From contig CABUOQ010000001.1 of NCBI GenBank assembly GCA_902493275.1, positions 28,639-92,638 on the forward strand: a stretch of 64,000 nucleotides of DNA. Reading direction: 5' to 3'. Both the position numbers and the translations under genes were made by a program. The stretch is from an uncultured Bacillota bacterium (GTDB lineage Bacteria > Bacillota_I > Bacilli_A > RFN20 > CAG-449). Positions 6,084 through 61,071 of this stretch are shown one piece after another. Numbering within the stretch: position 1 is the stretch's first letter; every line of letters begins with the position of its first letter. The notes under the pieces are model-generated. The model did no database searches. It was not told the origin of the DNA and saw only the letters and a program-made list of their open reading frames with translations.

Positions 6084-6176
6084 TTAACTAATTATCAAGA
6101 AAATCACATATAAGACAATAACTATTACCAAGATAACAAGCATTGTTTTAAAGGTTAGATTTTCGCTTTCTTTCAT
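6084..6176 (-). CDS. Possible 30-aa single-TM micropeptide translationally coupled to ruvA (stop TAA directly abuts the ruvA ATG)
   Basis: MKESENLTFKTMLVILVIVIVLYVIFLIIS read on the minus strand. There is no obvious SD. It is below the ORF-track size cutoff. Confidence 0.2.
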   Translation of the reverse strand: MKESENLTFKTMLVILVIVIVLYVIFLIIS

Positions 6177-6239
6177 AGAATTATTATAAATAATTTATTC
6201 GATATTTACTATAAATTTATTTATAGAGTTTGTTTTTTA

Positions 6240-8659: not shown

Positions 8660-9481
8660 TCATTTATTTATGTTTTTTGCATTTTTATCTTTGAAAATAT
8701 TCAACCAATTTCTAGGCTTTTTTCTTTTTCTTAATGATTGTGTTAATAATGATATTAGATACTCTTTTTCATCGATGAATTTTCCATTTGATAAGTAGAT
8801 ATTTCGCTTAAAATGATAGATTTTATCACTATCATTAATCTGCATTGGAAAATCAATCTTCATCCCACTTCTAGTAATTAAGTATTCTTGATAATCTTTT
8901 TTTAAAGTGGTGATTCTAACTAAAATATATGTTAGAAGTAAAAATAAAAATAATATTTGCCTTTGCTTAAGAAGAATAAAAAATATTAATATTAGCGATA
9001 ATCCTGAAAAGACATATTGAAATCGATATGCACTTTTTAAAGGGAAATTATAACGATAGATGATTTGAAATATTCTTCCGCCATCTAAAGGATAAAGTGG
9101 CAAAAGATTAAATAGAGCCAAGAATAGATTTTCGTGATTAAACACTTTAAATTGATACAATGAGATGTAGTTTATTTTAAATAAGCTAAATAATAATAAG
9201 TATGAAATAAAATAACTAAATGGTCCAGCGAGATAAAATATGACTTGCTGCATTATTTTCTTATATGAAAGATCTTCCATCTCCATCGAAAAACCATAAA
9301 AATGTAATTCAATCGTCTTGATTTTAAACTTGAATATAGATGCCCAAAATAAATGCGATAATTCGTGAATCAAATCAAATAAAAATAAGATTAAAACCTC
9401 ATCTACTAAATGAAAAAAAATGCAAATTATGATAAATAACACGCAAAATGGTGATATTTTTATCTTATTTGAGAGCCTCAT
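8660..9481 (-). CDS. M50 site-2 zinc metalloprotease, SpoIVFB-like
   Basis: Polytopic membrane protein with HELSH (HExxH in a TM segment) and the downstream LDGGRIF motif that defines S2P/M50. Its position directly upstream of rplU matches B. subtilis spoIVFB. Confidence 0.7.
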   Translation of the reverse strand: MRLSNKIKISPFCVLFIIICIFFHLVDEVLILFLFDLIHELSHLFWASIFKFKIKTIELHFYGFSMEMEDLSYKKIMQQVIFYLAGPFSYFISYLLLFSLFKINYISLYQFKVFNHENLFLALFNLLPLYPLDGGRIFQIIYRYNFPLKSAYRFQYVFSGLSLILIFFILLKQRQILFLFLLLTYILVRITTLKKDYQEYLITRSGMKIDFPMQINDSDKIYHFKRNIYLSNGKFIDEKEYLISLLTQSLRKRKKPRNWLNIFKDKNAKNINK

Positions 9482-10037
9482 TATATGAAATTATTTCGTT
9501 ATTCTTTTTAAAGATGCATTGAAAATAAGAACCTTCATATATTCCAATTACATTATTTGCTAATAAAACATCGTCTGTTTTTACCTTAATATCATCAATT
9601 AATGTATATAATGCTGTCACATTATTTTCGTATTCAACAACCACGAAATATTTATAATCATCTTGATATGAACAAGCTTTAATCGTTCCATTGTTTATAG
9701 TTGGAATTGTTTTATCACTTGTGATATACATATTATTTCCTAGACTTTGATATAGATTAATTCCTGAAACATTCATAGTTGATTGATGATTATCTTCTTT
9801 AAAGAAAAAGATCTTATTAAGATAATTATCAATTGTCTGATTTAATTCTTTAAATGAAACATCTTGGTTAAAAATCTGTTTTATCAGTTTTCCATCTTCA
9901 TCACTTTTGCAATAAATCAAACCACCTAAAGTGATGATCATTAAGATGAAAATCACATTAAAAAATTTCATGATTCGATGCTCTTTGACTTTCTTTTCTT
10001 TATTCATTCTTCTTTTTATTTCTTCAACGTTTTCCAT
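9465..10037 (-). CDS. SpoIVFA-like membrane protein (degenerate LytM/M23 fold) by position and architecture
   Basis: 190 aa, one TM helix, a C-terminal beta-rich region lacking the catalytic His residues. Overlaps the M50 gene by 17 nt. Confidence 0.4.
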   Translation of the reverse strand: MENVEEIKRRMNKEKKVKEHRIMKFFNVIFILMIITLGGLIYCKSDEDGKLIKQIFNQDVSFKELNQTIDNYLNKIFFFKEDNHQSTMNVSGINLYQSLGNNMYITSDKTIPTINNGTIKACSYQDDYKYFVVVEYENNVTALYTLIDDIKVKTDDVLLANNVIGIYEGSYFQCIFKKNNEIISYNEALK

Positions 10038-10108: not shown

Positions 10109-10789
10109 TTAATATGAAAAAGTTTTCTCAGTTAAAATTCCATATATCGTATTTTTAGTAAAAATAAAGTGCTCAACGACTTTAATTCCCATCAAATTAC
10201 AGGTAATAATGATATTGTTCGTCGAATTAATATCCTCAATGGAAGGCTTAACATTATCTGAAGGATGATTATGAATAATGACAATTTTGCTTGCATTATA
10301 TTTTAACGCGGTAGATATAATCTGTCTTGATGAGATATTCACACTGATATCTCCGCCATTTGAAAGTTCTTTAACGCCAAGAAAACCATTTTGATGGTTC
10401 AATAATATTATGAAAACCTTTTCGTTTTTTAAATTAAAAACGTATGGTTTCATGATTTTTATTATCTCTTGAACGCTATTGATTTTACGACAATCATTCA
10501 TTCTTTCTTTATCGATTCGCCGACAGAGTTCAAATGAGGCTAATAATTTTATCGCTTTAACCTTTTTTATCCCTGTCAAAGATGAAATTTCATTAATATC
10601 TAATAGTGACAATTCACTAAGTGAATGATATTTTTTTAACAATTGATGCGCCAATTCTAAAACATCTAAGTTTTTACAACCACTTGATATTATAATTGCC
10701 AATACTTCTTCATCCGTTAAGCTTTCAATTCCGAATAAAAAGGCCTTTTCACGCGGCCTTTTCATAATTGGTAAATCCTTTAATCCCAT
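10109..10789 (-). CDS. radC: RadC-family JAMM protein
   Basis: C-terminal JAMM motif IHNHPSD.. and N-terminal HhH-like region; 226 aa. Confidence 0.9.
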   Translation of the reverse strand: MGLKDLPIMKRPREKAFLFGIESLTDEEVLAIIISSGCKNLDVLELAHQLLKKYHSLSELSLLDINEISSLTGIKKVKAIKLLASFELCRRIDKERMNDCRKINSVQEIIKIMKPYVFNLKNEKVFIILLNHQNGFLGVKELSNGGDISVNISSRQIISTALKYNASKIVIIHNHPSDNVKPSIEDINSTNNIIITCNLMGIKVVEHFIFTKNTIYGILTEKTFSY

Positions 10790-10950
10790 GAGAATTTAAA
10801 ACCACCTGGAATAGTTGTGCTGCCTTTATCCGACATGAATAATCGGTAAATAATCACAGCTACGACCGCGGCCATCATCACAGACATGACAGCCATAATC
10901 GTTATTTCACCTCCAACAACTTCACTCATTTGAGCTTCATTTAATTTCAT
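10780..10950 (-). CDS. 56-aa peptide with a double-glycine-type leader (MKLNEAQMSEVVGG) and a hydrophobic 42-aa mature part. Not in the ORF track because it is under 60 aa.
   Basis: Strong SD (AGGAGG, 8-nt spacer) before the ATG at 10950. Its stop overlaps the radC ATG by 8 nt. Read by eye on the minus strand. Confidence 0.4.
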   Translation of the reverse strand: MKLNEAQMSEVVGGEITIMAVMSVMMAAVVAVIIYRLFMSDKGSTTIPGGFKFSWD

Positions 10951-10994
10951 ATTTATTTCCTCCTATTATTTAAATAAGGAGAAATAAAACATTT

Positions 10995-13580
10995 TTATAA
11001 AATTTGTGATTTTTTATTTTTATATTCGTTTAATTGATTCTCATAATTTAAAAGCTTTTGTTTTTCCAAATTGATTTTCTGTTCTGGTGCTTTAGCGATA
11101 AATGCTGGATTATCTAACATCTTCTTACAACGAGCAACTTCTTTTTCTAATGCAGTAATTTTTTCATCTAACTTCTTAATTATTTCTTCTTTTGAAACAT
11201 TTTCTTCAATGAACATTTGCCCAATTGAATATAATGTAGATAGTGATTTTTTGTTTTCATCATCGATAATAATCTCTTCGGCGAATCCAAATCGTTTCAA
11301 ATAAGGAATAACTATATTAAAATCAAAATCACCATGATGATTTAAAAATAGACGAACTTTAGCATTAGGAGCTAAATTATTATCAACTTTGAAATTTCTG
11401 ATGTCCTTAATCATCTTGATAAGACCATCAACTTTTCTTTCATTTTCATCATCGAGATACTTATCTTCAATTTGCGGATAAGAATCAAGCATAATCGATT
11501 CTAAATGACCTGGTAAATTTAAATATATCTCTTCGGCGATAAATGGTGTATATGGATAAATCATTAAAATGATTGCTCTTAAAACCTTAAGCAAAACTTT
11601 CTTACTATTTAACGCATGTTCACCATTAAATTTTATCTTTGAAAATTCAACATACCATGAGGTGAAATCATCGTAAACAAAATCATATAAATGCGTTGAT
11701 GCATTAGCAAAATCATACTTTTCCATATTATCAGTAACATTGATAATTGTTTTTTGTAAACGGCTTAAGATATAGTGATCAAATATATCAAGTTCATCAT
11801 CATTTATTGGAAGTGATAAATCATCATTTTCAATATTCAATAAAATGAAACGCGATGCATTCCAAATTTTATTTAAATATGCTTCAGATGATTTAATTTT
11901 TTCTTCAGAATAACGTGTATCAAGTCCTGGCGAAGTAGAGGTGGTTAAAAAATATCTAAGTGCATCCACGCCATATTGATTAATCACGTCGATTGGATCG
12001 ATACCATTACCTAATGATTTTGACATCTTACGACCCTGACTATCACGTATTAAACCATGAATCAAGCATTTTTTAAATGGTGCTTGCTTGGTGAACTCTA
12101 ATCCTTGGAAAATCATTCTTGAAACCCAAAAGAAAATAATATCATATGCCGTAACCATCACATCGATAGGATAATAACGTTTTAATAATGCGCTGTCATC
12201 TGGCCATCCTAAGGTAGAAAAAGGCCAAAGTGCAGAAGAAAACCAAGTATCAAGAACATCTTCATCTTGAAGATAATTTTCCATATTTTCAGGCTCATTT
12301 TCACTTACAAGAACTTCACCAGTTTTTTTATTATAATATGCTGGAATACGATGTCCCCACCATAATTGACGAGATATACACCAGTCTTCACATCCTTCCA
12401 TCCAGGAAGTAAATATTTTATTGAAACGTTCAGGAATGAATGTGACTTTCTCTTCACTATCTTGATTTTTTAGCGATTGTTCCGCTAGAGGTTTCATCTT
12501 GACAAACCATTGTTTTTTTAACATTGGTTCGACTACCGCTCCACTTCTTTCGGAGTGTCCAACTTGGTGAACAATATCATCGATTTTAATTAAATTTCCT
12601 TCTTTTTTAATTTGTTCAACTAATTTATCCCGACATTCATAACGGTCTAGTCCCGCGTATTCTTTTCCACAACAATCAGCCATTGTCGCATCATCGTTGA
12701 TGACGATTGGATGAGGGAATTTATATTTTTGTCCAATAGTGAAATCATTTGGATCATGAGCTGGAGTACACTTCATAACTCCCGTTCCAAATTCAATATC
12801 GACATAATCATCTTCAATGATTGGAATTAATTCGTGATTAGCTGGGTTAATTACCTTTTTACCAACGACATTTTTATATCTTTCATCTTTAGAATTAACA
12901 ACAACGCATACATCGCCAAACATAGTTTCAGGACGCGTGGTTGCCACTGTTAAATATTTATCAGAATTCTCAATATAATATTTAAAATAATAGAACTTTC
13001 CTGGATCATCTTTGTGAATTACTTCGATATTACTCAATGCGGTTTTAAAAACCGGATCCCAATTTATGATTCTTTCACCACGATAAATAAGTCCTTTATT
13101 ATATAAAGTCACAAATACATGCTTAACTGCTTTAGATAATCCTTCATCTAAAGTAAATCTTTCTTTAGAATAATCAAGCGATAAACCCATCATCGCCCAT
13201 TGACTATGAATAGTGTCCGCGTATTCATGTTTCCAATTCCAAGCTTGTTCTAAAAATTTTTCTCGACCCAAATCATAACGAGATATTCCTTGACTTCTAA
13301 GACGCTGCTCAACTTTGGCTTGAGTAGCTATTCCAGCGTGATCCATACCTGGAATCCATAAAACATCGTATCCTTGCGCTTTTTTATAACGGGCAATTAT
13401 ATCTTGAATCGTCGTATTCCATGCATGTCCTAAATGAAGCATACCAGTAACATTAGGAGGTGGAATAACCATAGAAAATTTAGTTTTGGTTAAATCTCCA
13501 CTGAGAAAGTAACCTTTATCTTTCCAAGTTTGATACTTGCCATTTTCAACTTGTTGATGATCATAATGAGTGTCTAACAT
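10995..13580 (-). CDS. valS: Valine--tRNA ligase
   Basis: HIGH-type motif PPPNVTGMLHLGHA, KMSKS motif, C-terminal coiled coil; 861 aa. Confidence 0.97.
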   Translation of the reverse strand: MLDTHYDHQQVENGKYQTWKDKGYFLSGDLTKTKFSMVIPPPNVTGMLHLGHAWNTTIQDIIARYKKAQGYDVLWIPGMDHAGIATQAKVEQRLRSQGISRYDLGREKFLEQAWNWKHEYADTIHSQWAMMGLSLDYSKERFTLDEGLSKAVKHVFVTLYNKGLIYRGERIINWDPVFKTALSNIEVIHKDDPGKFYYFKYYIENSDKYLTVATTRPETMFGDVCVVVNSKDERYKNVVGKKVINPANHELIPIIEDDYVDIEFGTGVMKCTPAHDPNDFTIGQKYKFPHPIVINDDATMADCCGKEYAGLDRYECRDKLVEQIKKEGNLIKIDDIVHQVGHSERSGAVVEPMLKKQWFVKMKPLAEQSLKNQDSEEKVTFIPERFNKIFTSWMEGCEDWCISRQLWWGHRIPAYYNKKTGEVLVSENEPENMENYLQDEDVLDTWFSSALWPFSTLGWPDDSALLKRYYPIDVMVTAYDIIFFWVSRMIFQGLEFTKQAPFKKCLIHGLIRDSQGRKMSKSLGNGIDPIDVINQYGVDALRYFLTTSTSPGLDTRYSEEKIKSSEAYLNKIWNASRFILLNIENDDLSLPINDDELDIFDHYILSRLQKTIINVTDNMEKYDFANASTHLYDFVYDDFTSWYVEFSKIKFNGEHALNSKKVLLKVLRAIILMIYPYTPFIAEEIYLNLPGHLESIMLDSYPQIEDKYLDDENERKVDGLIKMIKDIRNFKVDNNLAPNAKVRLFLNHHGDFDFNIVIPYLKRFGFAEEIIIDDENKKSLSTLYSIGQMFIEENVSKEEIIKKLDEKITALEKEVARCKKMLDNPAFIAKAPEQKINLEKQKLLNYENQLNEYKNKKSQIL

Positions 13581-13870
13581 ATATTTCCCTCCTAAAAATA
13601 AAAAAACATCCAGTTAAGGACGTTAAACGCGGTACCACCTTAATTCGATTACAAAAAAATAATCGCACTTAATTGAACTTTAACGCAGTTAACGAAGATT
13701 CCTCTTATCTCAACAGCGACTATAATTAATTTCTTTAACTTCTTTTCACCAACCAGAAGCTCTCTTTTAAATTCCTTAATTAACCTCTGTCTCATCGACT
13801 AGAAATATATTAACTAATTTAAAAAGTTAAAGCAAGTTAATATTTCTAATTTCCTTATTAATGTTTTTGC
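13581..13870 (-). promoter_or_regulatory. T-box riboswitch leader of valS
   Basis: Conserved T-box sequence: the minus-strand RNA reads AAGGUGGUACCGCG (plus coordinates 13626-13639). Immediately downstream is a terminator hairpin ACGUCC..GGAUGU plus U7AU5. It is followed by an AGGAGG SD and the valS ATG. Confidence 0.7.
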
Positions 13871-23257: not shown

Positions 23258-25978
23258 TCAACTTTTTGTAAAAGTTATATTTATATCGTCACCTGAATCA
23301 TAATCGGCAAAAGTTTCAGAAGGATCATATTGAGAAAGGACAATAAAATAAGTAATGTCTTTATTAAAGTTTCCATAAATCTCTGCATTAGAATCATCAG
23401 AATCATCATTTTCATTAATATCATATTCAATTAAATCTGAACTACTTGGATTAATAACATAGAGATAATTGTCAAACTCACTATTTAATTTAATTTTATA
23501 GTAACCACTTTCAGTTGGAGTCCATGTTAAAACCATAGAATTGTACTGACATAAATATGCTTTTAAAGAATAATTTGTAACTGAATTAATATGATAAATA
23601 TTTTCATATTTTGATAATGAATTATCTTCATTATTTTTAAACCCTTTTATAGGGGTTATAGATAGTTTCGTCTTTCCGGAAGCAGTTGAACTATATAATT
23701 TTATTTTCAAGACATAAGTTTTATTGGATTCTAAATTTTTATTAATAAATGAATTTAATTTATATCCTGAATCATCATCGTTAGCAATTAAAGTTTTTCC
23801 ATCCTCTTCATACAACCACATTTTGGTATCTATTCCACCAAACGTTTGTATTAATTTATCACCAGAATTATCAAAACTAATGTGGAAGATCCATTCTGTT
23901 CCCTGTGAAATAGCTAAGCTTTTTTCAAAATATCTTATATTATCTAATTCTAAATTGGTTTCTGCCATAGAAGGCTTAGAAAATTCATAGTAACTAGAAT
24001 AATATGGACCACTCTCTATACCAAGAGTAGCATATGATTGAATCATAACATAATACTTTGTACCTGTTGCCATAAGTATAGAGTCCCATTCACTTTGAGT
24101 TAAAGTATATGTGTTAGTAGTTATGTTATTCTTCTTTAATATCAAATTTTTGTTTAAATCATAAAAGTTTAATGTGAATTTATTATTGCAAAAACTATAT
24201 TTTACTCCATCTACAATAATACTTGTCCCTCCAACTTTCCAATTAAATGTTGGTAGTACAAAATAATTATCAGAAACATTAATTGAAATATTGTATGAGC
24301 TCAGTTTGAATCCTTCTAGCAATTTTCCTAAGTCAGAACGTGAAAAACTTAACTCACTATTATATAAAACATTAATAAAATCGTAAAAAAATTCTGGGTT
24401 GTTATCAACCATTAAGTTCCACAAATCCGTATCACTAATTGATAATTTATCACAATCTATAGAATTGTTTGAATCCCAAAGTCTATAAAGAAAACTTTCA
24501 ATAATAACTTCATCTGATTCGCCATTTATTTGATTATGAAATCCAAATGTATTAGTCATTTCCTCTAAACTTTGATCTATTCCATTATAAGAACTATATT
24601 TTACGTCTCCGACAACAGATATTTTTCTTAAGTCTTGTGGAAAAGTGCTTTGAGCAGTAATAGCAAAAAATGTAGGCCATGCCTCCTTCCAAGCAAGACC
24701 AATCGCATGAGTTTTTGCTTTCGCTAATTCTTGAGCGTCGATAATATATTCTTCACTATTCTGTTTTGCACTAATAATATTACTGAATAAATATTGGTAT
24801 AAACCATTATAAACTATAGCATGCTCACCAGAATAATTTTGTTGAAAAAAACATTTCTGTAAATGGTGGCCATATTCATGACCTATAACATCCCACGAAC
24901 CATGAACGGATGGAGAGTCATTTTTTCTATAAGACTCATTGGCCAAATAAATATTTTGCTCATTATTTAAATAATAACATCCATCATTTTCTGTAGGATA
25001 TACAATACCACATGTTTCTATGTAAACTCCATTGTTTAATGTTCTTGCATACTCAGAATATCTTTCCATTGCAGAAAAAATTTGCATTGCATATCCCAAA
25101 TCATCATGTTGCGCTCCAGTAAATGTTAGAGTGCCAAAGTCATAATTTGTATTAATTGAAAAATTTGTAAGTTTATTAGCACTTTCATACACATTTCCAT
25201 TTTTATTTATTACTTTTACCATTAAATTTTCAGCATAAATATGTATATAGCAATCACTACTTGCTAACAAACTACTATAATTAATATTAAAATATCCAGA
25301 AGAATTAGTATAAGTAAAATATGCAAATTGATTATGACCTAAATCTAATTTAACTTTTACCCCAATTAAAGGGTGAGAATTTAACTCATCATCCTCCCAT
25401 TTTAAATATCCATAAACTCTTCCAGAGAAACTAATTTTTTGAGGCTTATTAGTATCCATATCTTCAGACTCTGGCGTTACTCCTATATACGATGCATTAT
25501 CTACATCGTTATCCATATACTTTTGACCTGGAATATTTCCTACTAATTCCCAAGCTGAATAAAGCGACAATGAAGATATGGCATATTTATTGTCTTCACT
25601 TTTTGAAGAATAAACACTTCTTTTAATTGTCTCTTCTTCCAAAGAAAATGATATTTCTGTTTTTCCATCTTCATTAGGTAAAGTAAATTTTACATAACAT
25701 CCACTTATATCTGATGATATGATATCTAAACTTATATTACCTTCAAAATGTATTAAAGGAACAGCTTCAAAATCATAATTAATATTGCCAAAAAATGTGT
25801 TGTTATTTGAAACAGCATTCTCACCAAAATCAAATGTAATTGTATGATTGTTTCCCGTTCCTAAACTATAATTAACATTTTTAATTTCAGTTAAATTTAC
25901 TAAATTTTCATTGCTTACTGACGGATGAAAAGAAATACCCAAAAAAACCAACATTAATATTAAGAACTTTTTTAACAT
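23258..25978 (-). CDS. Large secreted protein (906 aa) with an HExxH zincin-like motif and a C-terminal pre-peptidase (PPC)-like domain; putative metallopeptidase
   Basis: SPI-type signal peptide MLKKFLILMLVFLGISFHPSVS. Motif ..SWDVIGHEYGHHLQ... A C-terminal roughly 110 aa region ..LYEEDGKTLIANDDDSGYKLNSF..YVLKIKLYS.. resembles PPC domains. Asn/Ser/Tyr-rich beta composition. Confidence 0.55.
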   Translation of the reverse strand: MLKKFLILMLVFLGISFHPSVSNENLVNLTEIKNVNYSLGTGNNHTITFDFGENAVSNNNTFFGNINYDFEAVPLIHFEGNISLDIISSDISGCYVKFTLPNEDGKTEISFSLEEETIKRSVYSSKSEDNKYAISSLSLYSAWELVGNIPGQKYMDNDVDNASYIGVTPESEDMDTNKPQKISFSGRVYGYLKWEDDELNSHPLIGVKVKLDLGHNQFAYFTYTNSSGYFNINYSSLLASSDCYIHIYAENLMVKVINKNGNVYESANKLTNFSINTNYDFGTLTFTGAQHDDLGYAMQIFSAMERYSEYARTLNNGVYIETCGIVYPTENDGCYYLNNEQNIYLANESYRKNDSPSVHGSWDVIGHEYGHHLQKCFFQQNYSGEHAIVYNGLYQYLFSNIISAKQNSEEYIIDAQELAKAKTHAIGLAWKEAWPTFFAITAQSTFPQDLRKISVVGDVKYSSYNGIDQSLEEMTNTFGFHNQINGESDEVIIESFLYRLWDSNNSIDCDKLSISDTDLWNLMVDNNPEFFYDFINVLYNSELSFSRSDLGKLLEGFKLSSYNISINVSDNYFVLPTFNWKVGGTSIIVDGVKYSFCNNKFTLNFYDLNKNLILKKNNITTNTYTLTQSEWDSILMATGTKYYVMIQSYATLGIESGPYYSSYYEFSKPSMAETNLELDNIRYFEKSLAISQGTEWIFHISFDNSGDKLIQTFGGIDTKMWLYEEDGKTLIANDDDSGYKLNSFINKNLESNKTYVLKIKLYSSTASGKTKLSITPIKGFKNNEDNSLSKYENIYHINSVTNYSLKAYLCQYNSMVLTWTPTESGYYKIKLNSEFDNYLYVINPSSSDLIEYDINENDDSDDSNAEIYGNFNKDITYFIVLSQYDPSETFADYDSGDDINITFTKS

Positions 25979-28103: not shown

Positions 28104-29072
28104 TTAATATATTTCCTTTACTTTTGCAATAAAAAAACTCAAAGTTTTCTCATGATAATATTCTCGTGCTGTCTTTTTGTCATCAGTAACATAAATTTGA
28201 TTTATATAAGGGCAATCTTTATAATATGAAGAAATAACTTTCATTGATAAAACATCACCAAATTCTGAATATTCTCTTTCAAAGCCATCATTATATATTA
28301 TACGGGCATCGCTTAAAGTACCATTAATGTATCTTTGCAATGTTGGGACTACGCCGCCTCTATAACCAAGTGTTGGATTACCTTCAACTGATAGACCATA
28401 TTTATTAGTAAATTGACTATAATATTCATCACTAGTAAAATATTTTGACATATCAAAACCATACAATACTTTTTCATTATTCTCAATGTAGTCATTAAAA
28501 AATAATTTCTTAAAGGAAGTACAATCACTACACGTTTCTAAATGGAAATAAACATCTATATCACCATTTGATGAAATTAATTTATTTAATTCATCCTCAT
28601 CATTTAACACATAAAAATTAGAAACGTTAATCTTAGAATTAATTAAATTATTAAACGCTATCGAAGAATTAAATATCTCACTATTTTTTTCATCATCAAA
28701 GCGCTCCTTAATATTACCATTTTCATAAAGAATAAGTGTTGGAGTTACTTTATATGGTGAAAAAGAATTATCAGGAGATAATCGCTCAGCATCAACGTTT
28801 ATGCCATATATTAAGCAGTGATTCTGTTTAATATATGAATTCAAAATATTTTCAAATGAATTACAGGAAAAACAACTGGGAGAATAAATAAATAACAAAA
28901 AAGTGTCTTCATTCATTATCTTCCCTTGCAATATATCTTTTGAAATATCAGCAAAGCTCTCATTAAATGCTGATCCTTGTATTGTAATCATATCTTTATT
29001 AGGCATGATACTTCCTTGTTTACATCCAGTTAAGCACATCAAAACCAAAAATGGAATAATCTTTTTTTTCAT
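28104..29072 (-). CDS. Lipoprotein with two thioredoxin-like CxxC domains (thiol-disulfide oxidoreductase-like)
   Basis: Lipobox LTGC; ..LFIYSPSCFSCNSF.. and ..DVYFHLETCSDCTSF.. CxxC motifs in a beta-strand-CxxC-helix context; 322 aa. Confidence 0.55.
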   Translation of the reverse strand: MKKKIIPFLVLMCLTGCKQGSIMPNKDMITIQGSAFNESFADISKDILQGKIMNEDTFLLFIYSPSCFSCNSFENILNSYIKQNHCLIYGINVDAERLSPDNSFSPYKVTPTLILYENGNIKERFDDEKNSEIFNSSIAFNNLINSKINVSNFYVLNDEDELNKLISSNGDIDVYFHLETCSDCTSFKKLFFNDYIENNEKVLYGFDMSKYFTSDEYYSQFTNKYGLSVEGNPTLGYRGGVVPTLQRYINGTLSDARIIYNDGFEREYSEFGDVLSMKVISSYYKDCPYINQIYVTDDKKTAREYYHEKTLSFFIAKVKEIY

Positions 29073-30307
29073 TAGAATTTTACCATTCCATATTTCTTTT
29101 TACCACGTCTAATTACGATATATTTTTCACCTATAGCCATTTGACTTGTTAAAATGACATTGCTGTCCGTAATTTTTTCACCATTAACACTAATAGCGCC
29201 ACCTACAATAAATTCACGACCCTCACGCTTAGAAGAAGCAAGTTTTAATCTTATAATAGCATCAAGCAATGTTTCATTTTCCAAAGCAGAAATGCAAGGT
29301 AAATCATTAAAGCCCATCTCAATTTCTTCTGCAGTTAGTTCTTTAATATTGCCATCAAATAAGGCTTGTGAAATTCTTAAAGCTTGTGCATATGCTTTTT
29401 CACCATGAACGAAAGTAGTTATCTCTTTAGCTAATGTTTTTTGAGCAAGTCTTTTTTCTGGCTCATTTAAGAAATCTTTTTCGATTTGATATATATCTTC
29501 TAATGGCAAAAAAGTAAATTGCTTTAAGCGCTTAATTACTTCATTATCTGGTGTATTTATCCAGAATTGATAAAATTCGTATGGTGAAGTTTTCTCTTTG
29601 TCTAACCAAACTGATTTTCCACCTTCTGATTTACCAAATTTAGTGCCATCAGATTTAAGTATTAATGGAATAGTCATTCCATACACTTTAGCCTCAGGAC
29701 CATTCTTTTTACGGATTAATTCAATTCCAGCGGTAATATTTCCCCATTGATCTTGACCACCAATTTGAACGTTGCAATTTTCAAATTGATATAAATGATT
29801 CCAGTCTAAAGATTGTAAAATCTGATATGAAAATTCAGTATATGAAATTCCAGATTCTAGTCTTGATTTAACTGTATCTTTATTAATCATATAATTAACA
29901 TTAAATTCTTTACCATAGTCACGTAAGAAATCGATTACACTAATTTTTGAAATCCAATCATAATTATTTACAATTTTCTCAAAGCCAAAAATTTCTTTGA
30001 CTTGTTTAGCTAAACATTCAGAGTTTTTCAAAGTAACACTTGGGTCGAGCATTTTTCTTTCACCTTGCATTTTTGGATCGCCGATTAAACCGGTTGCTCC
30101 TCCAACTAACAAGATTGGGTGATGACCATGATCTTTTAATCTTTTAGCCACTAAATATGTTACTAAATGACCAACATGAAGAGAATCACCTGTAGGATCA
30201 CATCCAAGATAAAATGTCACTTTATTATTTTCTAAAAAATCTCCAAAACCTTCATCTGTGGTATCAAAGAATAAATCTCTTTGCTTTAATTCATCAATCA
30301 ATCTCAT
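29072..30307 (-). CDS. tyrS: Tyrosine--tRNA ligase
   Basis: HIGH-type motif ..DPTGDSLHVGHL.., KMSKS-type KFGKS, C-terminal S4 domain; 411 aa. Confidence 0.97.
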   Translation of the reverse strand: MRLIDELKQRDLFFDTTDEGFGDFLENNKVTFYLGCDPTGDSLHVGHLVTYLVAKRLKDHGHHPILLVGGATGLIGDPKMQGERKMLDPSVTLKNSECLAKQVKEIFGFEKIVNNYDWISKISVIDFLRDYGKEFNVNYMINKDTVKSRLESGISYTEFSYQILQSLDWNHLYQFENCNVQIGGQDQWGNITAGIELIRKKNGPEAKVYGMTIPLILKSDGTKFGKSEGGKSVWLDKEKTSPYEFYQFWINTPDNEVIKRLKQFTFLPLEDIYQIEKDFLNEPEKRLAQKTLAKEITTFVHGEKAYAQALRISQALFDGNIKELTAEEIEMGFNDLPCISALENETLLDAIIRLKLASSKREGREFIVGGAISVNGEKITDSNVILTSQMAIGEKYIVIRRGKKKYGMVKF

Positions 30308-30560
30308 ATTATTCCTCCTAAAAAATAAAAAGCGCCTTAGAAATTTCTAAGGACGCATCTAAGATACGCGGTACCACCTTAGTTCTAGCAATGCTAGCCC
30401 TCTTTAATTAAGTTTCTCCAAAGTGTATTTCATTAACTGATCAACAATGATTTTCACCATCCATCATCTCTCTAAATTCTTAATCAGATAACTACTTATC
30501 TTTTTCATAGAAACAATCTTTCGATTAATCTTATTTTAAAAGGAATTTTATCCTTAATCA
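30308..30560 (-). promoter_or_regulatory. T-box riboswitch leader of tyrS
   Basis: Minus-strand RNA carries AAGGUGGUACCGCG (plus 30365-30378). A terminator hairpin GCGUCCUUAG..CUAAGGCGC plus a U-run follows, then the SD and ATG. Confidence 0.7.
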
Positions 30561-39622: not shown

Positions 39623-41179
39623 CTAATTTTTTATGATTGTAACTGTACATTCTTCACTAGTTAAATTAGATACTGAAATTGTATATCCAACTTCGTTTCC
39701 AGCATTGAATCTTGTGCCGTTATTGAAGAAAGTAGAAGATGCTTGGAATTTTTTACTTCCAGTCCATAAAGTAGTAGAAGGATCAATATAACCGCCATAG
39801 CCATTATTGATTTTATTATTTCCACCTTGATCTAAAAGATGCAAATAACGATAGATTTTCTTATAAGCATTACTTAAATAAGAATTTGAATAAGAGTTTG
39901 AAGCTCCAACATAGTAAATATAATTACTATCGGTAATATCTATATCATCAGCATATGAGACAAAATTACCCATTGAATTTAACTTTACCAATCTTGCGTC
40001 AACATGATAGATCCTTAATCCATTATAATTATACATTTTGTCTCTTCCATTATATTGATGCTTAGCATCAATCTCATTTAAGCCTTGATTAGTATAGTAT
40101 TCAATAAAGAGATATTCATCAAAAATCGATTTATTCCAGTCATCATTAATGAGAATGGCTTCATCATATAAGGCGGAAGTTTTTAATTTGATGGTAGCAT
40201 CACCTTTGACATAATATGGATTTATCCATCCAAGAGCAAATTTAGAGTATGCATTTTGATCGCCGACATTGTATGATTGCATTTCTAATTCTCCTGCTGG
40301 ATTCCATGCATTGGTATCGTCATAGCAATAATAATCATCTAATCCAAGCATATGTCCGCTTTCATGAATATAAGTATGCGCATCGACTTTATTATAGTTA
40401 TAACCATCTTGATATTTATCATTCATAAACGCATAGCTAGCCCACATATAGGAATTGAATGCTGGTTTATTAGCATTAGGACTATAAAGATAATTACCTT
40501 GAGATGCTACGTGGCACCACGCCCAGTAGGCGGTATCAGATGTCATTTTATAATCATTAGAGTAAATGAAGATGGCATTATCAACATATCCATCACTATT
40601 AAGGTCATATTTTTTTAATAATGAGGCTTCAGTTGCATTATAATATTTAGAAATCACATAATTAGGCGCATCATTTCCATATGAGTCAAGAGCATTGATG
40701 GTCATATTTAAAGAATATACTGAACTTACTTCCCCAGTAATATTTAATTTACCATAGCTTGATTTATAGTAAAAAGAACTAACAGATTCATAAGCGGTAT
40801 CTTCACTTTTACCAAAAAATGCAGTATTGAGTTCATCTAACATTGTGGATGTCCATTTTGGACCATCTTTAAGTTCAACTGGAATTACTAAGAACTTTTG
40901 ATTACCAACGCTTTTTGTTGTATACCAACCTAATTGTGAGTTTGTATCAGTCATCGTATATTTAACATCATCGCGATTAATCTTTTCATAGTTTAATGCC
41001 TCATCTTTCGATGATACACTGCTAGATGAATTCACAACATTCGACGATGAAGAAATACTATTAAATTCTGATGAGTCGGTAGAAGATGTTTCAGATTGTG
41101 ATGTCCCTAAATTTATTTTTATTGTGCAACTACTCAATAATAATCCACCAAGTAAAATAATTATGCTTTTCTTTTTCAT
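39623..41179 (-). CDS. Lipoprotein zinc metalloprotease, M6 (immune inhibitor A)-like
   Basis: Lipobox LLSSC; HESGHMLGLDDYY matches the M6 HExxHxxGxxD signature; Ser-rich linker after the lipobox. Likely start MKKKSII.. at about 41179. Confidence 0.55.
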   Translation of the reverse strand: MKKKSIIILLGGLLLSSCTIKINLGTSQSETSSTDSSEFNSISSSSNVVNSSSSVSSKDEALNYEKINRDDVKYTMTDTNSQLGWYTTKSVGNQKFLVIPVELKDGPKWTSTMLDELNTAFFGKSEDTAYESVSSFYYKSSYGKLNITGEVSSVYSLNMTINALDSYGNDAPNYVISKYYNATEASLLKKYDLNSDGYVDNAIFIYSNDYKMTSDTAYWAWCHVASQGNYLYSPNANKPAFNSYMWASYAFMNDKYQDGYNYNKVDAHTYIHESGHMLGLDDYYCYDDTNAWNPAGELEMQSYNVGDQNAYSKFALGWINPYYVKGDATIKLKTSALYDEAILINDDWNKSIFDEYLFIEYYTNQGLNEIDAKHQYNGRDKMYNYNGLRIYHVDARLVKLNSMGNFVSYADDIDITDSNYIYYVGASNSYSNSYLSNAYKKIYRYLHLLDQGGNNKINNGYGGYIDPSTTLWTGSKKFQASSTFFNNGTRFNAGNEVGYTISVSNLTSEECTVTIIKN

Positions 41180-41198
41180 AAATAATTCCTCCAAAAAT

Positions 41199-42839
41199 TT
41201 AAATATTAGCATCATATAATGAATGAGCGATATAACTTAAGTGATCACCAGCTCTTTCAAGATTAGAGACTAAGTTAATAAAAATTGAATTAGATAATGG
41301 TGAACATTTTCCTTCTTCTAATCTTTTTATATGTGCACTAATTAATTCACTTCTTAATTTATCAATTTCATTTTCGATTTTATCAGATTGTTTTATTATC
41401 ACCTTTTCGTGTTTAGAAAATAATTTTTTTACATTTTCATATTGTTGATTGAGGTTCTCTTTTAATGATAATATTCCCGTTTCAGCTTCTTTTGTAAAAA
41501 CAAGATTTTCATCTAAACGCTTTTTCGTATATTTAATCATGTTATCAGCAATTTCCGCTTCACGGGAAAAATCAATTAATATACGATGCAGTGAAGCAAT
41601 AAATCTTTCATCTTCGGTATTGATATCTAAAGAAGAAGTTTTAAGCAGATAATTTAATATCTCCGTATTCATTTTATCAATATATGAAATGTTTTCATAT
41701 ATTTTATCTTCATCTTTTAATGAATTATTTAAAAAAGCGTCAATAGATAAATTTAAGCATTCTAATGACATTCTTCCTAAACGCAAAGTTTCTTTACCAG
41801 CTTGATCGATAGCGATAGATGGAGTTTTAAAGAAACGCTCATCAAGAGATGTTATCATTACATTATCCTTTTTATTAGGGATAAGTAGTGTTGCTATCTT
41901 AACAAATATATTTATGAAAGGCAAGAAAATTAGTGTTGAAATAATATTAAAGAAAGTATGGAACATCGCAATTTGGGTTCCAGGAATATTTGGGAACCAT
42001 CGCATAAAAGTATCGTGATTAAAATTAGGCCAACATATCAATAAAATAAAGAACATTGTCGAGCCAAATAAATTGAACAATAAGTGAATTAATGAAGCTC
42101 TTTTAGCGTTTGGTGTAGCGCCAATAGAAGAAGCTAAAGCGGTTATACATGTTCCAATATTCGTACCGAGAATTATATATAAAACCGCATTATAATTATC
42201 GGCACTACCAATACTTAATCCGCTCATAAGCATGGTTATTAATATTGTAGTTACTGCAGATGATGATTGCAATATCGCCGTAATTACCATTCCGACAAGT
42301 AAAAGTAAAAATGGATTATTTATTCCTGATAAAAGCTGCTGAATCTGCTTTGAATTATCAAAAGCCATCGCATCTGACATAAATTGTAAAGCTAAGAAAA
42401 CAAGTCCTAATCCAGCAAGAGACATAAATATATTTTTAGTCTTCTCATGTTTAGATAGCATATTTCCAAATAAACCTATGAAAGCTAATACCATTAAGAC
42501 TTCCGCAACTGGAATAGCATTTAAAGAAACAATCTGCGCAGTAATTGTCGTACCAATGTTAGCACCCATAATCATTGCTGTCGCTTGGAATAGATCCATA
42601 ATTCCGGCGTTAACAAATCCGACTACCATAACCGTTGCCGCGGATGATGATTGAATAATTGCCGTTATTAACGCTCCAATACCAACGCCAATAAAACGAT
42701 TTTTAGATGTCTTCTTAAAAAGTTTTTTTAAGCCAGAATTAGCCAGTTTTTCAATATTTTCAGATAGGATTTTAAATCCAATCAAAAACGCCCCCAAACC
42801 GGCCAATAATTTAACTATTGCAATGACATAATCCCACAT
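41199..42839 (-). CDS. Na+/phosphate cotransporter family protein with C-terminal PhoU-like domains
   Basis: Duplicated NptA-type TM repeats (..IQSSSAATVMVVGFV.. and ..LQSSSAVTTILI..) plus a PhoU-like coiled region; 546 aa. Confidence 0.8.
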   Translation of the reverse strand: MWDYVIAIVKLLAGLGAFLIGFKILSENIEKLANSGLKKLFKKTSKNRFIGVGIGALITAIIQSSSAATVMVVGFVNAGIMDLFQATAMIMGANIGTTITAQIVSLNAIPVAEVLMVLAFIGLFGNMLSKHEKTKNIFMSLAGLGLVFLALQFMSDAMAFDNSKQIQQLLSGINNPFLLLLVGMVITAILQSSSAVTTILITMLMSGLSIGSADNYNAVLYIILGTNIGTCITALASSIGATPNAKRASLIHLLFNLFGSTMFFILLICWPNFNHDTFMRWFPNIPGTQIAMFHTFFNIISTLIFLPFINIFVKIATLLIPNKKDNVMITSLDERFFKTPSIAIDQAGKETLRLGRMSLECLNLSIDAFLNNSLKDEDKIYENISYIDKMNTEILNYLLKTSSLDINTEDERFIASLHRILIDFSREAEIADNMIKYTKKRLDENLVFTKEAETGILSLKENLNQQYENVKKLFSKHEKVIIKQSDKIENEIDKLRSELISAHIKRLEEGKCSPLSNSIFINLVSNLERAGDHLSYIAHSLYDANI

Positions 42840-45986: not shown

Positions 45987-47198
45987 ATGAAAACAAGTAA
46001 AAAAATACTTATCAGTCCCTTAATCATATTATTAAGTATTGGTATTCTCGCGTGTTCAAATCAAAATGACACAATGGGATTTGATAATACAACTTACGAT
46101 ATTTCACTCAATAATGATAAAAGTGTAATCGCCACAATTAAGAAAAATAATAATGGTTATTCACTTGATATTACTGGAGAAGGTGATGTAAAAGATTTTT
46201 CAAAAAAGAATCGAACTCCATGGTATTCTATCTATAAAAAAATAAATGAAATATCTATTGGAAATGGAATAAAGAGTCTAGGAAATGAAGTATTTAATAA
46301 TATTAATCTTCCTTATCTTATAACTCCAGAAACGTTGACGAAAATAACTTCCACCTCCTTTTATGAAAATACGATTATATACTCCTATGCTGATGATATC
46401 GAAGGTGATGAGAACTATACCATTTATTACTATTCAGAAAATCAACCATCTTCTCAGGAATCTAACAATAAAAAATATTGGCATATCGTTGACGATCTCA
46501 TTACCATATGGCCATCAATCGAAGAGATAAAAACATTATTTGTCGGTAATAGTTTTACTTATTATAACGATATTCCTGCCCTTACTCAATCAATAGCTAA
46601 TGATTTAGGCTATAACTTAGTTTGTGAATCTGTTACTATGGGGTCTCATAATCTAGAACAATTTGCAAATAAAGATGATGAATATGGCAAAATAGTTTTT
46701 AATAAATTAACTGCAAATAATGATTATAAATATCTTATTCTACAAGAGCAATCAACTAGAAGTTACACTAAATATTCTAACTTTAAAAATGGTGCTACTA
46801 TCTTAAAACTTCTCGCAGATTCAACTCAAACTGACTGTACAACAAGGCTCTACTCCACTTGGGGATATCAATCTGCCGCGGATGACCTTAAAGTTACAAT
46901 ACCAGAAATGGAAGAAAAAGTGCGTGATGCTTATGACAGTTTAGCTCAAGAATTAAATGTTAATGTTCATTACGTTGGTAAAGCTTTTTCAAAAGTTTAC
47001 TTAGAATATAATTCACAAATAAATTTATATCACACTGATAATAAACATCCTTCATATGCGGGCAGTTATTTATCAGCCTTAATACATGTCGGAAGCATAC
47101 TTAAATGTGATATCCGTAACACACAATTTATAGGAGAACTAAAAGAGCCTATTGCTGAAATTCTCAAACAAGTAGCATATGAAGTTTTAATTAATTAA
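45987..47198 (+). CDS. Lipoprotein with a BspA-type LRR-like N-terminal region and an SGNH/GDSL-like hydrolase C-terminal domain
   Basis: Lipobox LAC. ..FVGNSFTYYNDIP.. (degenerate GDSx block I) and ..DNKHPSYAGSYL.. (block V DxxH). Confidence 0.45.
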   Translation: MKTSKKILISPLIILLSIGILACSNQNDTMGFDNTTYDISLNNDKSVIATIKKNNNGYSLDITGEGDVKDFSKKNRTPWYSIYKKINEISIGNGIKSLGNEVFNNINLPYLITPETLTKITSTSFYENTIIYSYADDIEGDENYTIYYYSENQPSSQESNNKKYWHIVDDLITIWPSIEEIKTLFVGNSFTYYNDIPALTQSIANDLGYNLVCESVTMGSHNLEQFANKDDEYGKIVFNKLTANNDYKYLILQEQSTRSYTKYSNFKNGATILKLLADSTQTDCTTRLYSTWGYQSAADDLKVTIPEMEEKVRDAYDSLAQELNVNVHYVGKAFSKVYLEYNSQINLYHTDNKHPSYAGSYLSALIHVGSILKCDIRNTQFIGELKEPIAEILKQVAYEVLIN

Positions 47199-47213
47199 AG
47201 AAAGGAAAAGACA

Positions 47214-49130
47214 ATGAAAAAAAAGAAATTAATACTTTTATTCAGTTCGATATTAACCCTTGCTGGAATTGCCGGATGTAATAGTAATATCACATCATCA
47301 AATTCACAAGAAGAATCAATTAGTATCGTCAATCATTACTTAGTTCATTTCTATGTCGAAGAAAAACTATATACAACAGTAAGAGTCGCAGAAGGTGAAA
47401 TAATTGACAAGGAGATTCCAACACCTACCAAAACCGGCTACCGCTTTGTTGGATGGCAACTAGCTAATGGAGTCAGTTTTGATATCTTAACTGAACAAAT
47501 AACTTCCTCACTTGATTTATTCGCATCATTTAAAAAAATTGAAGAGACAATCAATGTTGAAGATGTTAAAGATGCTAATAAAGAATACTATCTTGTCATT
47601 GGCTGGTATGGTAAGACTTCAACTTCTGGATTAGATAATACTGTTATGACTACATTCGCCAAAAATCTTGTAACTTATCTTAAAAAGATTGGCGCAACTA
47701 ATGATAATATAAATAACGTTAGCATTAGAAAATACTGTGGTGATGTTGAGCCAAATGACGTCGCTACTATGGGTGGATTAATCAATACTGATGGTGATTG
47801 TGATTTACTTCTTGGAATTGGTAAAAACATCACTTCTACTGGTGGAGTTGAAACTAAAGATCGTGTCGACACTATCACAATGGGGGAAAAGACGCGTTCA
47901 ATGGCATTAGTAAGTGAAAACGAAATTGCAGCTAAAGTGTATGATTACATTCAAAGATGCCAAGAGACAACAAACTCAATCTTTACTGCTGAATTTGATA
48001 TTTCCAAAACACCTGTTGACAATGGATCATCCGTTGATCCTGAACCTGATCCTGAACCAGGTGATGAAACTATTAATGTTGAAGATGTTAAAGATGCTAA
48101 TAAAGAATACTATCTTGTTATTGGTTGGTATGGTAAAACATCCACTTCTGGATTAGATAATACTGTTATGACTACGTTTGCTAATAATCTTGTCACCTAT
48201 TTAAAAGCAATCGGAGCAACGAATGAGAATATTAAAGGTATAAGTATTAGAAAATACTGTGGTGATGCTGAGCCAAATGATGTCGCTACAATGGGTGGAT
48301 TAATCAATACTGATGGTGATTGTGATTTACTTCTTGGAATTGGTAAAAACATCACTTCTACTGGTGGAGTTGAAACTAAAGATCGTGTCGACACTATCAC
48401 AATGGGGGAAAAGACGCGTTCAATGGCATTAGTAAGTGAAAACGAAATTGCAGCTAAAGTGTATGATTACATTCAAAGATGCCAAGAGACAGAAAACTCA
48501 ATATTTACCTCGACATTTGATATCGCAAAGACTCCAACATCTGAAGAAACAGTTGACCCAAATCCTTCATATGTTCCATTCGAAGGAACCTTAAATGTCG
48601 AAGATGTTAAAGATTCAAGTAAAGAATACTATCTTGTCATTGGTTGGTATGGTAAAACCTCTACTTCAGGTTTAGATAATACTGTCATGACCACGTTTGC
48701 TAATAATCTAATTAAATATATGAATGATATGAAAATTAATAAAGATGATACTGCGCGTATAAGTATTAGAAAATACTGTGGTGATGTTGAACCAAATGAT
48801 GTTGCTACTATGGGTGGATTAATTAATACCGATGGTGATTGTGATATTCTTCTTGGTGTTGGTAAAAACATCACTTCTACAGGTGGAGTTGAAACTAAAG
48901 ATCGTGTCGATACCATCAATATGGGTAGTAAAACGCGTTCAATGGCATTAGTAAGTGATAAAGAAATAGCAACCAAATTATTTAACTATGTTCAAAAATG
49001 TCAAGATGCGTCTAATTCAATCTTCACTCCTGAGTTTGATATATCAAAAACACCTACTGATGATGGAACTACTAGTAGCTTAAATAATCCGTTATTGCTA
49101 GATGAGTATATATTTACTTTGGGTTTATAA
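47214..49130 (+). CDS. Lipoprotein: N-terminal Listeria-Bacteroides (Flg_new) repeat followed by three tandem roughly 173-aa copies of an unrecognised domain
   Basis: Lipobox AGC. ..GYRFVGWQL..LDLFASF is Flg_new-like. Each repeat unit is INVEDVKDANKEYYLVIGWYGKTSTSGLD...CGDVEPNDVATMGGLINTDGDCDLLLGIGKNITSTGGVETKDRVDTITMGEKTRSMALVSENEIAAKVYDYIQRCQ. Confidence 0.75.
   Translation: MKKKKLILLFSSILTLAGIAGCNSNITSSNSQEESISIVNHYLVHFYVEEKLYTTVRVAEGEIIDKEIPTPTKTGYRFVGWQLANGVSFDILTEQITSSLDLFASFKKIEETINVEDVKDANKEYYLVIGWYGKTSTSGLDNTVMTTFAKNLVTYLKKIGATNDNINNVSIRKYCGDVEPNDVATMGGLINTDGDCDLLLGIGKNITSTGGVETKDRVDTITMGEKTRSMALVSENEIAAKVYDYIQRCQETTNSIFTAEFDISKTPVDNGSSVDPEPDPEPGDETINVEDVKDANKEYYLVIGWYGKTSTSGLDNTVMTTFANNLVTYLKAIGATNENIKGISIRKYCGDAEPNDVATMGGLINTDGDCDLLLGIGKNITSTGGVETKDRVDTITMGEKTRSMALVSENEIAAKVYDYIQRCQETENSIFTSTFDIAKTPTSEETVDPNPSYVPFEGTLNVEDVKDSSKEYYLVIGWYGKTSTSGLDNTVMTTFANNLIKYMNDMKINKDDTARISIRKYCGDVEPNDVATMGGLINTDGDCDILLGVGKNITSTGGVETKDRVDTINMGSKTRSMALVSDKEIATKLFNYVQKCQDASNSIFTPEFDISKTPTDDGTTSSLNNPLLLDEYIFTLGL
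47551..49100 (+). repeat. Three tandem roughly 519-bp coding repeats; copies 1 and 2 about 97% identical, copy 3 about 80%
   Basis: Period measured from the repeated string aatgttgaagatgttaaagatgctaataaagaatac at about 47562 and about 48081, and the diverged aatgtcgaagatgttaaagattcaagtaaagaatac at about 48594. The identical antisense ORFs in the track (47675-47878 and 48197-48400) follow from this DNA repeat. Confidence 0.85.
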
Positions 49131-49145
49131 AATTGAGGAGGATAT

Positions 49146-49907: not shown

Positions 49908-49915
49908 GAGAAATT

Positions 49916-58726: not shown

Positions 58727-58735
58727 ATCTGTACC

Positions 58736-61069: not shown

Positions 61070-61071
61070 AA

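Follow-up and report, generated by a model that had tools for sequence, protein, structure and literature searches.

CydX, KdpF, AcrZ and MgtS are small bitopic subunits or regulators of larger proteins from the same operon, and the major coat proteins of Pf3 and M13 are mini-proteins which YidC inserts with the N-terminus outside and the C-terminus inside the cell (N-out/C-in). Class II bacteriocin precursors carry a double-glycine (GG) leader, and C39 peptidases need a Gly at position -2. The gene radC, for its part, was reportedly shown not to be a DNA-repair gene. Its product is a very widespread bacterial protein of unknown function with a misleading name, and its JAB domain has been interpreted either as a nuclease or as a peptidase (PMC3239186, PMC11981726). 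Here we analyzed a small gene directly upstream of radC in a 64,000-nt stretch of DNA (the window) from an uncultured Bacillota bacterium (contig CABUOQ010000001.1, positions 28,639 to 92,638). The small protein represents an undescribed family of small membrane proteins with a GG-leader-like N-terminus, coupled to RadC.

A small gene under purifying selection and its coupling to radC

The elements on which the analysis centers are the following:
10780 to 10950, minus strand: small gene for a 56-residue single-pass membrane protein of an undescribed family (open reading frame (ORF), translation and homologues)
10959 to 10964, minus strand: Shine-Dalgarno (SD) sequence AGGAGG, 8 nt 5' of the ATG of the small ORF (read from the sequence)
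10109 to 10789, minus strand: radC, with UPF0758_N HhH and RadC-type JAB domains (NF000642, 180.8 bits; PF04002, PF20582)

The small ORF runs from an ATG at 10950-10948 to a TAA at 10782-10780 and its 56 codons specify MKLNEAQMSEVVGGEITIMAVMSVMMAAVVAVIIYRLFMSDKGSTTIPGGFKFSWD. The radC start codon lies within its last four codons (ATGGGATTAA), giving an overlap of 10 nt (10780-10789) in a different frame, and the N-terminus of the RadC protein, MGLKDLPIMKRPREK, is a canonical RadC start. The first-pass annotation, which had left the strand unstated, had described a 56-residue ORF at this place, an AGGAGG 8 nt before its start and an overlap with the radC start in another frame; all three were found as described, on the minus strand. 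Of 54 distinct related loci, nearly all have an AGGAGG-type SD ahead of the ATG; the exceptions are L037 and L045, for which two starts were possible and the longer one was taken.

That annotation had also allowed that the small protein could be real, and had proposed conservation of its frame in relatives as a check. Among 5.8 billion proteins, a word-indexed search found 41 homologues (53-66 aa, 52-98% identity), all unnamed and without a Pfam domain, while a profile search against 1.84 billion cluster representatives yielded 66 homologue clusters (40 at E<=1e-10), almost all of about 56-62 aa. When one genome was scanned for each GTDB species, 49 genomes carried the gene, and these carriers are all metagenome-assembled genomes labelled as Bacilli, Erysipelotrichales, 'Tenericutes' or Clostridium sp. 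CAG:288: the family is restricted to uncultured low-GC Bacilli of gut and sediment. Gene callers in public collections do predict the gene, under no name and with no Pfam domain. Across the 54 distinct loci the frame is kept and third positions vary freely, the entropy at the three codon positions being 0.88, 0.59 and 1.56 bits. Among close pairs, the proportion of synonymous differences (pS) was 0.33-0.46 against a proportion of nonsynonymous differences (pN) of 0.008-0.03, for example 0.33 and 0.008 for L048/L049 or 0.46 and 0.014 for L030/L031, and the ratio of nonsynonymous to synonymous rates (dN/dS) was 0-0.05. The small ORF is a real gene under strong purifying selection, as its homologues and low dN/dS confirm. 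Moreover, identity to the window copy across species-level genomes was 49-69% for the small protein, 28-47% for RadC and 55-75% for ValS; judged by these values, the small protein evolves more slowly than RadC and about as slowly as ValS.

Known families were searched for in Pfam and NCBIfam, PHROGs, a PDB sequence profile search and Foldseek against the PDB. The window peptide had no significant match in Pfam or NCBIfam, the PDB profile search gave generic transmembrane (TM) helices only (e.g., the TLR4 TM), Foldseek gave no match with E<=0.001 in the PDB, and PHROGs gave weak matches only, all to families without a known function (best E=0.002). In the searchable literature nothing relevant was found for the motifs PGGFKF, YRLFMS and PGGWKF. 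A mobile-element origin was rejected, as tblastn found no plasmid or phage copies of the gene.

Coupling to radC, which the first-pass annotation had predicted at the level of translation, turned out to be the strongest feature of the gene. Among the 54 distinct loci (about 50 species) radC lies immediately 3' in 52, and in all of these 52 the inferred radC start falls between -14 and +6 nt from the stop of the small gene (29 overlaps and 23 gaps of 0-6 nt). The two genes are kept together under quite different contexts: i) where the upstream gene is YabP-YqfD (L001-3 and L028); ii) where both genes have left the vicinity of valS and the ribosomal cluster (L033, L037, L038 and L055); iii) with other neighbours (L011, L014 and L019). 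The most divergent members (P0101, P0071, P0097 and P0065) either overlap radC by 4 nt or lie 3 nt ahead of it, and P0101 (E=9e-5), which lacks a Pro-Gly-Gly (PGG) motif otherwise typical of the tail, is still coupled. The conserved unit is the small gene plus radC; valS is not a conserved partner and the valS-radC junction is incidental. A position between valS and radC, as first described, holds for the window, while elsewhere valS is replaced by other genes. No comparable small ORF was found upstream of radC in other Firmicutes lineages sampled via RadC homologues (Anaerococcus and one further lineage), where radC is followed by mreBCD or mreCD. In the RadC partners, aligned as a paired set of 38 species, the E...HNHP...S..D residues of the JAMM-type metal site are invariant.

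Several further observations concern this pair. The sporulation genes YabP/YqfD adjoin the small gene in related genomes (L001-3). A single lineage has the small gene uncoupled from radC (5995-7518 of L009 and 1048-1215 of L007), with an AG junction at the end of its leader-like segment. In L072 (2887-3241; also in L073), two tandem paralogues stand between valS and radC: the first is a 56-residue protein, MKRELSFDELKNVKGYFGIAISVGVALISVIFTIVFNLVLRKGHSPIVGGFIFKWC, with a GY junction, and 1 nt later comes the 60-residue P0065, then radC, an arrangement which recalls two-peptide systems or a hetero-oligomeric TM pair. In the window, a GC-rich hairpin with a T-run (AAAGGCCgcgtgaaaAGGCCTTTTT) lies at about 10745-10770 on the minus strand, in the conserved RPREKA codons ~20 nt past the radC start; it might be due to chance or might affect coupled translation or transcription.

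Three other explanations of the locus were tried and rejected. The P-G-G codons could have been kept as an SD for radC (GGNGG); only nine of 54 loci read GGAGG there, and at each of the three invariant residues all four synonymous codons are in use, so the constraint is on the protein and not on an embedded ribosome-binding site. A competence link was suggested by a ComX-box-like 8-mer (AACGAATA) placed 80 nt before the ATG; the window has 55 such matches with one mismatch, which is chance level, and only three of the 54 related loci have one. Finally, the SpoIVFA/B-like M23 and M50 genes, as true partners of the small gene, are near a minority of loci only.

Protein anatomy and the double-glycine motif

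Three parts can be distinguished in the protein:
10909 to 10950, minus strand: residues 1-14, acidic amphipathic N-tail ending in Gly-Gly (GG-leader-like; least conserved region)
10837 to 10908, minus strand: residues 15-38, Glu cap and Ala/Val/Ile-rich TM helix ending in Tyr-Arg-Leu-Phe (hydropathy, AlphaFold2)
10783 to 10836, minus strand: residues 39-56, basic and aromatic tail MSDKGSTTIPGGFKFSWD, predicted beta-hairpin with a PGG turn (AlphaFold2 strands, conservation)

Hydropathy peaks at 2.75 over residues 16-34 (Kyte-Doolittle, 19-residue maximum). The AlphaFold2 model, built on a 41-sequence alignment with a mean predicted local distance difference test (pLDDT) score of 76.5, has two helices, a short one (5-10) and a long one (13-39, pLDDT about 93 at its center), and a beta-hairpin whose strands (43-47/51-55) are joined by a turn at Pro48-Gly-Gly50. 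Hydropathy and model thus agree on a small protein with one TM helix, and on this point the small hydrophobic membrane protein of the first-pass annotation stands. In the 41-homologue alignment YRLF and PGG are invariant, and the family consensus of the tail is STTxPGG[F/W]KFxW. In P0011, a relative abundant in the human gut, the tail reads GSTSLPGGFK where the window copy has GSTTIPGGFK. Pairwise identity differs strongly by region, from 28% in the N-tail through 74% at the G-G-E junction, 57% in the TM helix, 78% in YRLFMS and 55% in the loop to 91% in PGGFKFSW. In divergent members PGG is replaced by GND or GPN; as these are typical turn residues, a structural turn is favoured over a cleavage site. 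The median charge in the family is -1 for the N-tail, followed by a near-invariant Glu at the helix start, and +2 for the C-tail (-2 and +1 in the window copy). Because of these tail charges and the positive-inside rule, the topology would be N-out/C-in, with the conserved hairpin in the cytoplasm.

The N-terminal segment resembles a GG leader closely. As first described, the window peptide has L at -12, M at -7, V at -4 and G at -2 and -1; position -8 is Q, where most relatives have E. A regular expression for GG leaders picked out one of 1028 candidate small ORFs in the window, namely the small ORF itself, against 0.05 per shuffled window. Over the family, the commonest residues are L-12, E-8, M/L-7, I/V-4 and G-1, with I, L or V at -4 in 26 of 30 GG species. 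Profile hidden Markov models (HMMs) tell a similar story: TIGR03949 (class IIb bacteriocin, lactobin A/cerein 7B) matches 13 of 41 relatives (E<=1), and TIGR01847 and TIGR04149 match seven each. One relative, P0003 (75% identical to the window peptide), scores above the cut-offs of both TIGR03949 (24.4 vs 21.5 bits) and TIGR01847 (16.1 vs 15.7 bits). The window peptide itself reaches neither of these two models, its sole leader-model match being to lant_leader_L1a at 15.9 bits, under the 22-bit cut-off. The family is therefore borderline for bacteriocin HMMs. The suggestion of a membrane protein with a chance GG motif was thus right about the membrane protein, but the resemblance is not imaginary.

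On the other hand, the motif is labile. At the junction, 50 species-level loci have GGE/GGD (31), TGE (7), VG[E/A/S] (8), AGE (3) or GYE (1), so that Gly-2 is replaced (by V, T, A, S or P), or Gly-1 by Y, in 19 of 50 species (38%) and in about two-thirds of clusters. Among representatives of 50%-identity clusters only about one third have GG, the rest showing VG, SG, PG, TG, AG, GN and more. Non-GG states occur at five or more separate places on a ValS neighbour-joining tree, on which L010/L012 (GG) and L004/L050 (VG) are sister groups, and the tail is nearly constant throughout. Since Gly-2 is not conserved and C39 peptidases need it, the conserved function of the protein cannot depend on C39 cleavage. 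The neighbourhood gives the same picture: when the 41 window ORFs of 150 aa or more were scanned with Pfam, none had a C39 or ABC domain, in line with the first-pass annotation, which had seen no C39-peptidase ATP-binding cassette (ABC) exporter in the window; across 638 kb from 73 related loci no ORF combined Walker-A with LSGGQ, and the neighbourhoods with Pfam annotation were free of C39, ABC, immunity-like and ComD/E-type genes. In addition, the mature peptide would be about neutral and not cationic. The family lacks three of the four testable defining features of class IIb bacteriocin precursors.

The GG-leader likeness is thus real but not conserved, and a secreted peptide is probably not what the gene makes; a GG-leader peptide processed by a transporter, as one reading of the first-pass annotation had it, does not pass that annotation's own check on the conservation of GG, and is at odds with the loss of Gly-2 and with a leader that is the least conserved region. 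A Type IV or Flp prepilin was also considered, given the conserved Gly-1, and rejected: the leader is acidic, Glu is at +1 and not at +5, an EY motif is missing, and none of the pilin HMMs matched.

A proposed membrane partner for RadC and the rival explanations

The reading that we favour, to which we would give about an even chance, is that of a non-secreted bitopic membrane protein made in fixed proportion with RadC, whose cytoplasmic hairpin binds, tethers or regulates RadC. Because the radC start overlaps or abuts the stop of the small gene, both proteins are translated in a coupled way from a single message, presumably at a fixed ratio. The C-terminal hairpin would then lie in the cytoplasm, where RadC with its HhH and JAB domains resides, and could dock onto RadC, tethering or regulating it at the membrane. 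Under this reading Gly-Gly would be a helix-breaking junction at the membrane surface instead of a C39 cleavage site, and may be a relic of a GG leader or convergent with one. Both the contact and its consequence for RadC are proposals at this stage.

Several points weigh against this reading. Gene order is what suggests the contact with RadC and the functional link, and sharing an operon can reflect co-regulation instead of contact. The predicted topology has the positive-inside rule as its one basis. In most species the full consensus (L-12, E-8, M/L-7, GG) is kept, which a membrane partner of RadC does not explain. In L007/L009 a terminator hairpin and then minC-minD-M23-M50 follow the small gene and radC is not adjacent, so the small gene can persist without a neighbouring radC. 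Finally, RadC is without a known membrane role (PMC3239186, PMC11981726).

The same L007/L009 arrangement would suit a second explanation, in which the protein has an independent role in a cell-envelope, division or sporulation cluster (e.g., modulating the M50 protease or the Min system) and shares only a transcript with radC. The locus also mirrors the B. subtilis cluster radC-mreBCD-minCD-spoIVFA-spoIVFB-rplU, and in the window M23-like and M50 genes follow radC. However, most loci have no M23/M50 or minCD nearby while 52 of 54 have radC next to the small gene, the two genes move as a unit when the context changes, and the overlap of stop and start is conserved. We regard an independent role as a serious but rather unlikely alternative. 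A genuine GG-leader peptide, at least in the GG lineages including that of the window, would be cut after Gly14 by a distant C39 ABC exporter that releases a hydrophobic peptide of 42 residues, serving as a class IIb-like bacteriocin or as a signal. It draws on the L-12, M-7, V-4 and GG of the window peptide and the family-wide fit at -12, -8, -7 and -4, on the matches to TIGR03949, TIGR01847 and TIGR04149 with P0003 above cut-offs, on the tandem paralogues of one lineage, as in two-peptide bacteriocins, and on small-xxx-small spacing in the Ala-rich helix. Yet 38% of species and some two-thirds of clusters have a residue other than Gly at -2 while the protein is otherwise unaltered, the window peptide matches neither bacteriocin model, and conservation is lowest in the leader and highest in the core, the opposite of bacteriocin families. 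Moreover, in about 50 species the gene keeps one fixed site in the core genome, coupled to radC, no ABC/C39, immunity or two-component genes lie nearby in the 73 loci, no plasmid or phage copies were found, and the mature peptide is about neutral; we consider such a peptide unlikely.

A further possibility makes the small protein a substrate of RadC, acting as a JAB/JAMM-type metalloprotease that cuts after Gly-Gly (PGG|FKFSW or GG|E) and so releases an aromatic peptide or exposes a GG end. In structure, JAMM peptidases cleaving after the GG of ubiquitin (Ub) or ubiquitin-like proteins (Ubl) are the nearest relatives of the RadC domain (PMC11981726), the partner RadCs keep the JAMM residues without exception, and PGG is invariant in the 41-homologue alignment of a gene coupled to radC. 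Nevertheless AlphaFold2 places PGG at a hairpin turn, GND or GPN replaces it in divergent members still coupled to radC, the [F/W]KFxW after GG is as conserved as GG, unlike in propeptides that are removed, the small protein has no beta-grasp fold, and for RadC-type JABs an action on nucleic acids has been proposed (PMC3239186). We think a substrate role very unlikely. Its boldest form, in which RadC is a JAMM-type peptidase with the mini-protein as membrane-anchored substrate or cofactor, a cut after Gly-Gly frees FKFSW(D) or unmasks a GG end, and the leader-like N-terminus is a second, ancestral processing site, is speculative and highly improbable; if true, RadC peptidase and mini-protein would form a new membrane module for peptide processing or signalling.

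A small membrane protein obligately co-translated with RadC is a concrete and testable lead: the membrane may be where RadC acts, or a peptide may be its target or partner. Binding and cleavage assays could use the hairpin tail of 18 residues as a probe, and a synthetic peptide SDKGSTTIPGGFKFSWD is a candidate for a cleavage assay with RadC and Zn2+. The lead applies to a family restricted in its distribution as described above, and its functional part is read from gene order. There is also a lesson for annotation: a GG-leader consensus, even one above NCBIfam bacteriocin thresholds as in P0003, can belong to a housekeeping membrane protein, so mining pipelines could mislabel this family as class IIb bacteriocins.

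Surroundings of the locus and comparison with known systems

The elements upstream of the small gene are:
10995 to 13580, minus strand: valS (ORF), neighbour upstream of the small gene in the window
13613 to 13804, minus strand: T-box leader of valS (Rfam RF00230, 102.8 bits)

The end of valS is 44 nt upstream of the small ORF, and no terminator-like site was found between them; the valS T-box is the probable start of a transcript running via valS into the small gene and radC. A 48-residue ORF at 13649-13795, called by gene callers in related contigs, lies inside this T-box and is probably not a gene. A second T-box leader (30346-30517, minus strand; RF00230, 104.7 bits) precedes tyrS (29072-30307).

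On the 3' side, radC is followed on the same strand by an M23-like gene, an M50 peptidase gene, rplU, a Prp protease gene, rpmA, obg, ruvA and ruvB, an order that matches the one in Bacillus subtilis except that mreBCD and minCD are missing. Between radC and rplU, 8660-10037 (minus strand) encode a degenerate M23-like protein of 190 aa with one N-terminal TM and an M50 intramembrane metalloprotease of 273 aa; the pair occupies the B. subtilis position of spoIVFA-spoIVFB. A 30-codon hydrophobic ORF between obg and ruvA (6084-6176, minus strand), MKESENLTFKTMLVILVIVIVLYVIFLIIS, gave a weak match to the family profile (6087-6194, E=0.008), probably through generic TM similarity, and could be another unannotated small membrane protein; as this was the only other match, the small gene is single-copy in the window. 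Farther away are two clusters of large predicted surface proteins (55895-63108 on the minus strand and 45987-52336 on the plus strand) with F5/8 type C, GLUG, Listeria-Bacteroides repeat, alpha-amylase and BspA-type leucine-rich repeat (LRR) domains, and large ORFs without a Pfam match at 23258-25978, 39623-41215 and 49916-52336.

Compared with described systems, the small protein shares features with each of five and coincides with none. With ComC precursors of competence-stimulating peptides (CSP) it shares a GG-type leader, one relative weakly matching ComC_Streptocco (E=0.077), and radC is a late competence gene in S. pneumoniae (PMC6560143); unlike in those precursors, the part after the leader is a TM helix and not a soluble pheromone, and ComD/E or ComAB genes are missing nearby. 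Class II GG-leader bacteriocin precursors (TIGR01847, TIGR03949) have in common with it the 14-residue segment with L-12, (E-8), M/L-7, I/V-4 and GG, a hydrophobic helix rich in small residues, a length of about 56 aa, one relative above both cut-offs and one tandem pair. They differ in that here Gly-2 is labile, the leader is less conserved than the core and neither model matches the window peptide, and in that the gene belongs to the core genome, coupled to radC, with neither exporter or immunity genes nor mobile-element copies. In the pairs of a JAMM/JAB protein and its GG substrate (Rpn11/ubiquitin, PfJAMM1/SAMP, QbsD/QbsE and Mec+/CysO; PMC3239186, PMC11981726), a JAB gene likewise adjoins that of a small protein whose invariant Gly-Gly has a few residues behind it; here, in contrast, the small protein is a TM helix plus hairpin and not a beta-grasp Ubl, its GG sits in a turn where GND or GPN can replace it, and RadC belongs to a different JAB clade of unknown activity.

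The Pf3 and M13 coat proteins show no detectable homology (weak PHROGs matches only and no phage match in tblastn), and the small gene is chromosomal and housekeeping. Their layout is nevertheless alike: an acidic N-tail, a helix start containing Gly, an Ala/Val/Ile TM helix and a basic aromatic C-tail, as seen when ...IKLFKKFTSKAS of M13 g8p is set beside ...YRLFMSDKGS of the small protein. This likeness supports the predicted N-out/C-in topology. Finally, relative to CydX, KdpF, AcrZ and MgtS, the partner here is a soluble HhH and JAB protein with no known membrane function, and contact between the two is a proposal. The small protein nonetheless shares with these bitopic proteins a length of about 30-60 aa, one TM helix, a strong SD, co-transcription with its partner and high conservation, the conserved element being in its case a predicted cytoplasmic beta-hairpin instead of the TM helix.

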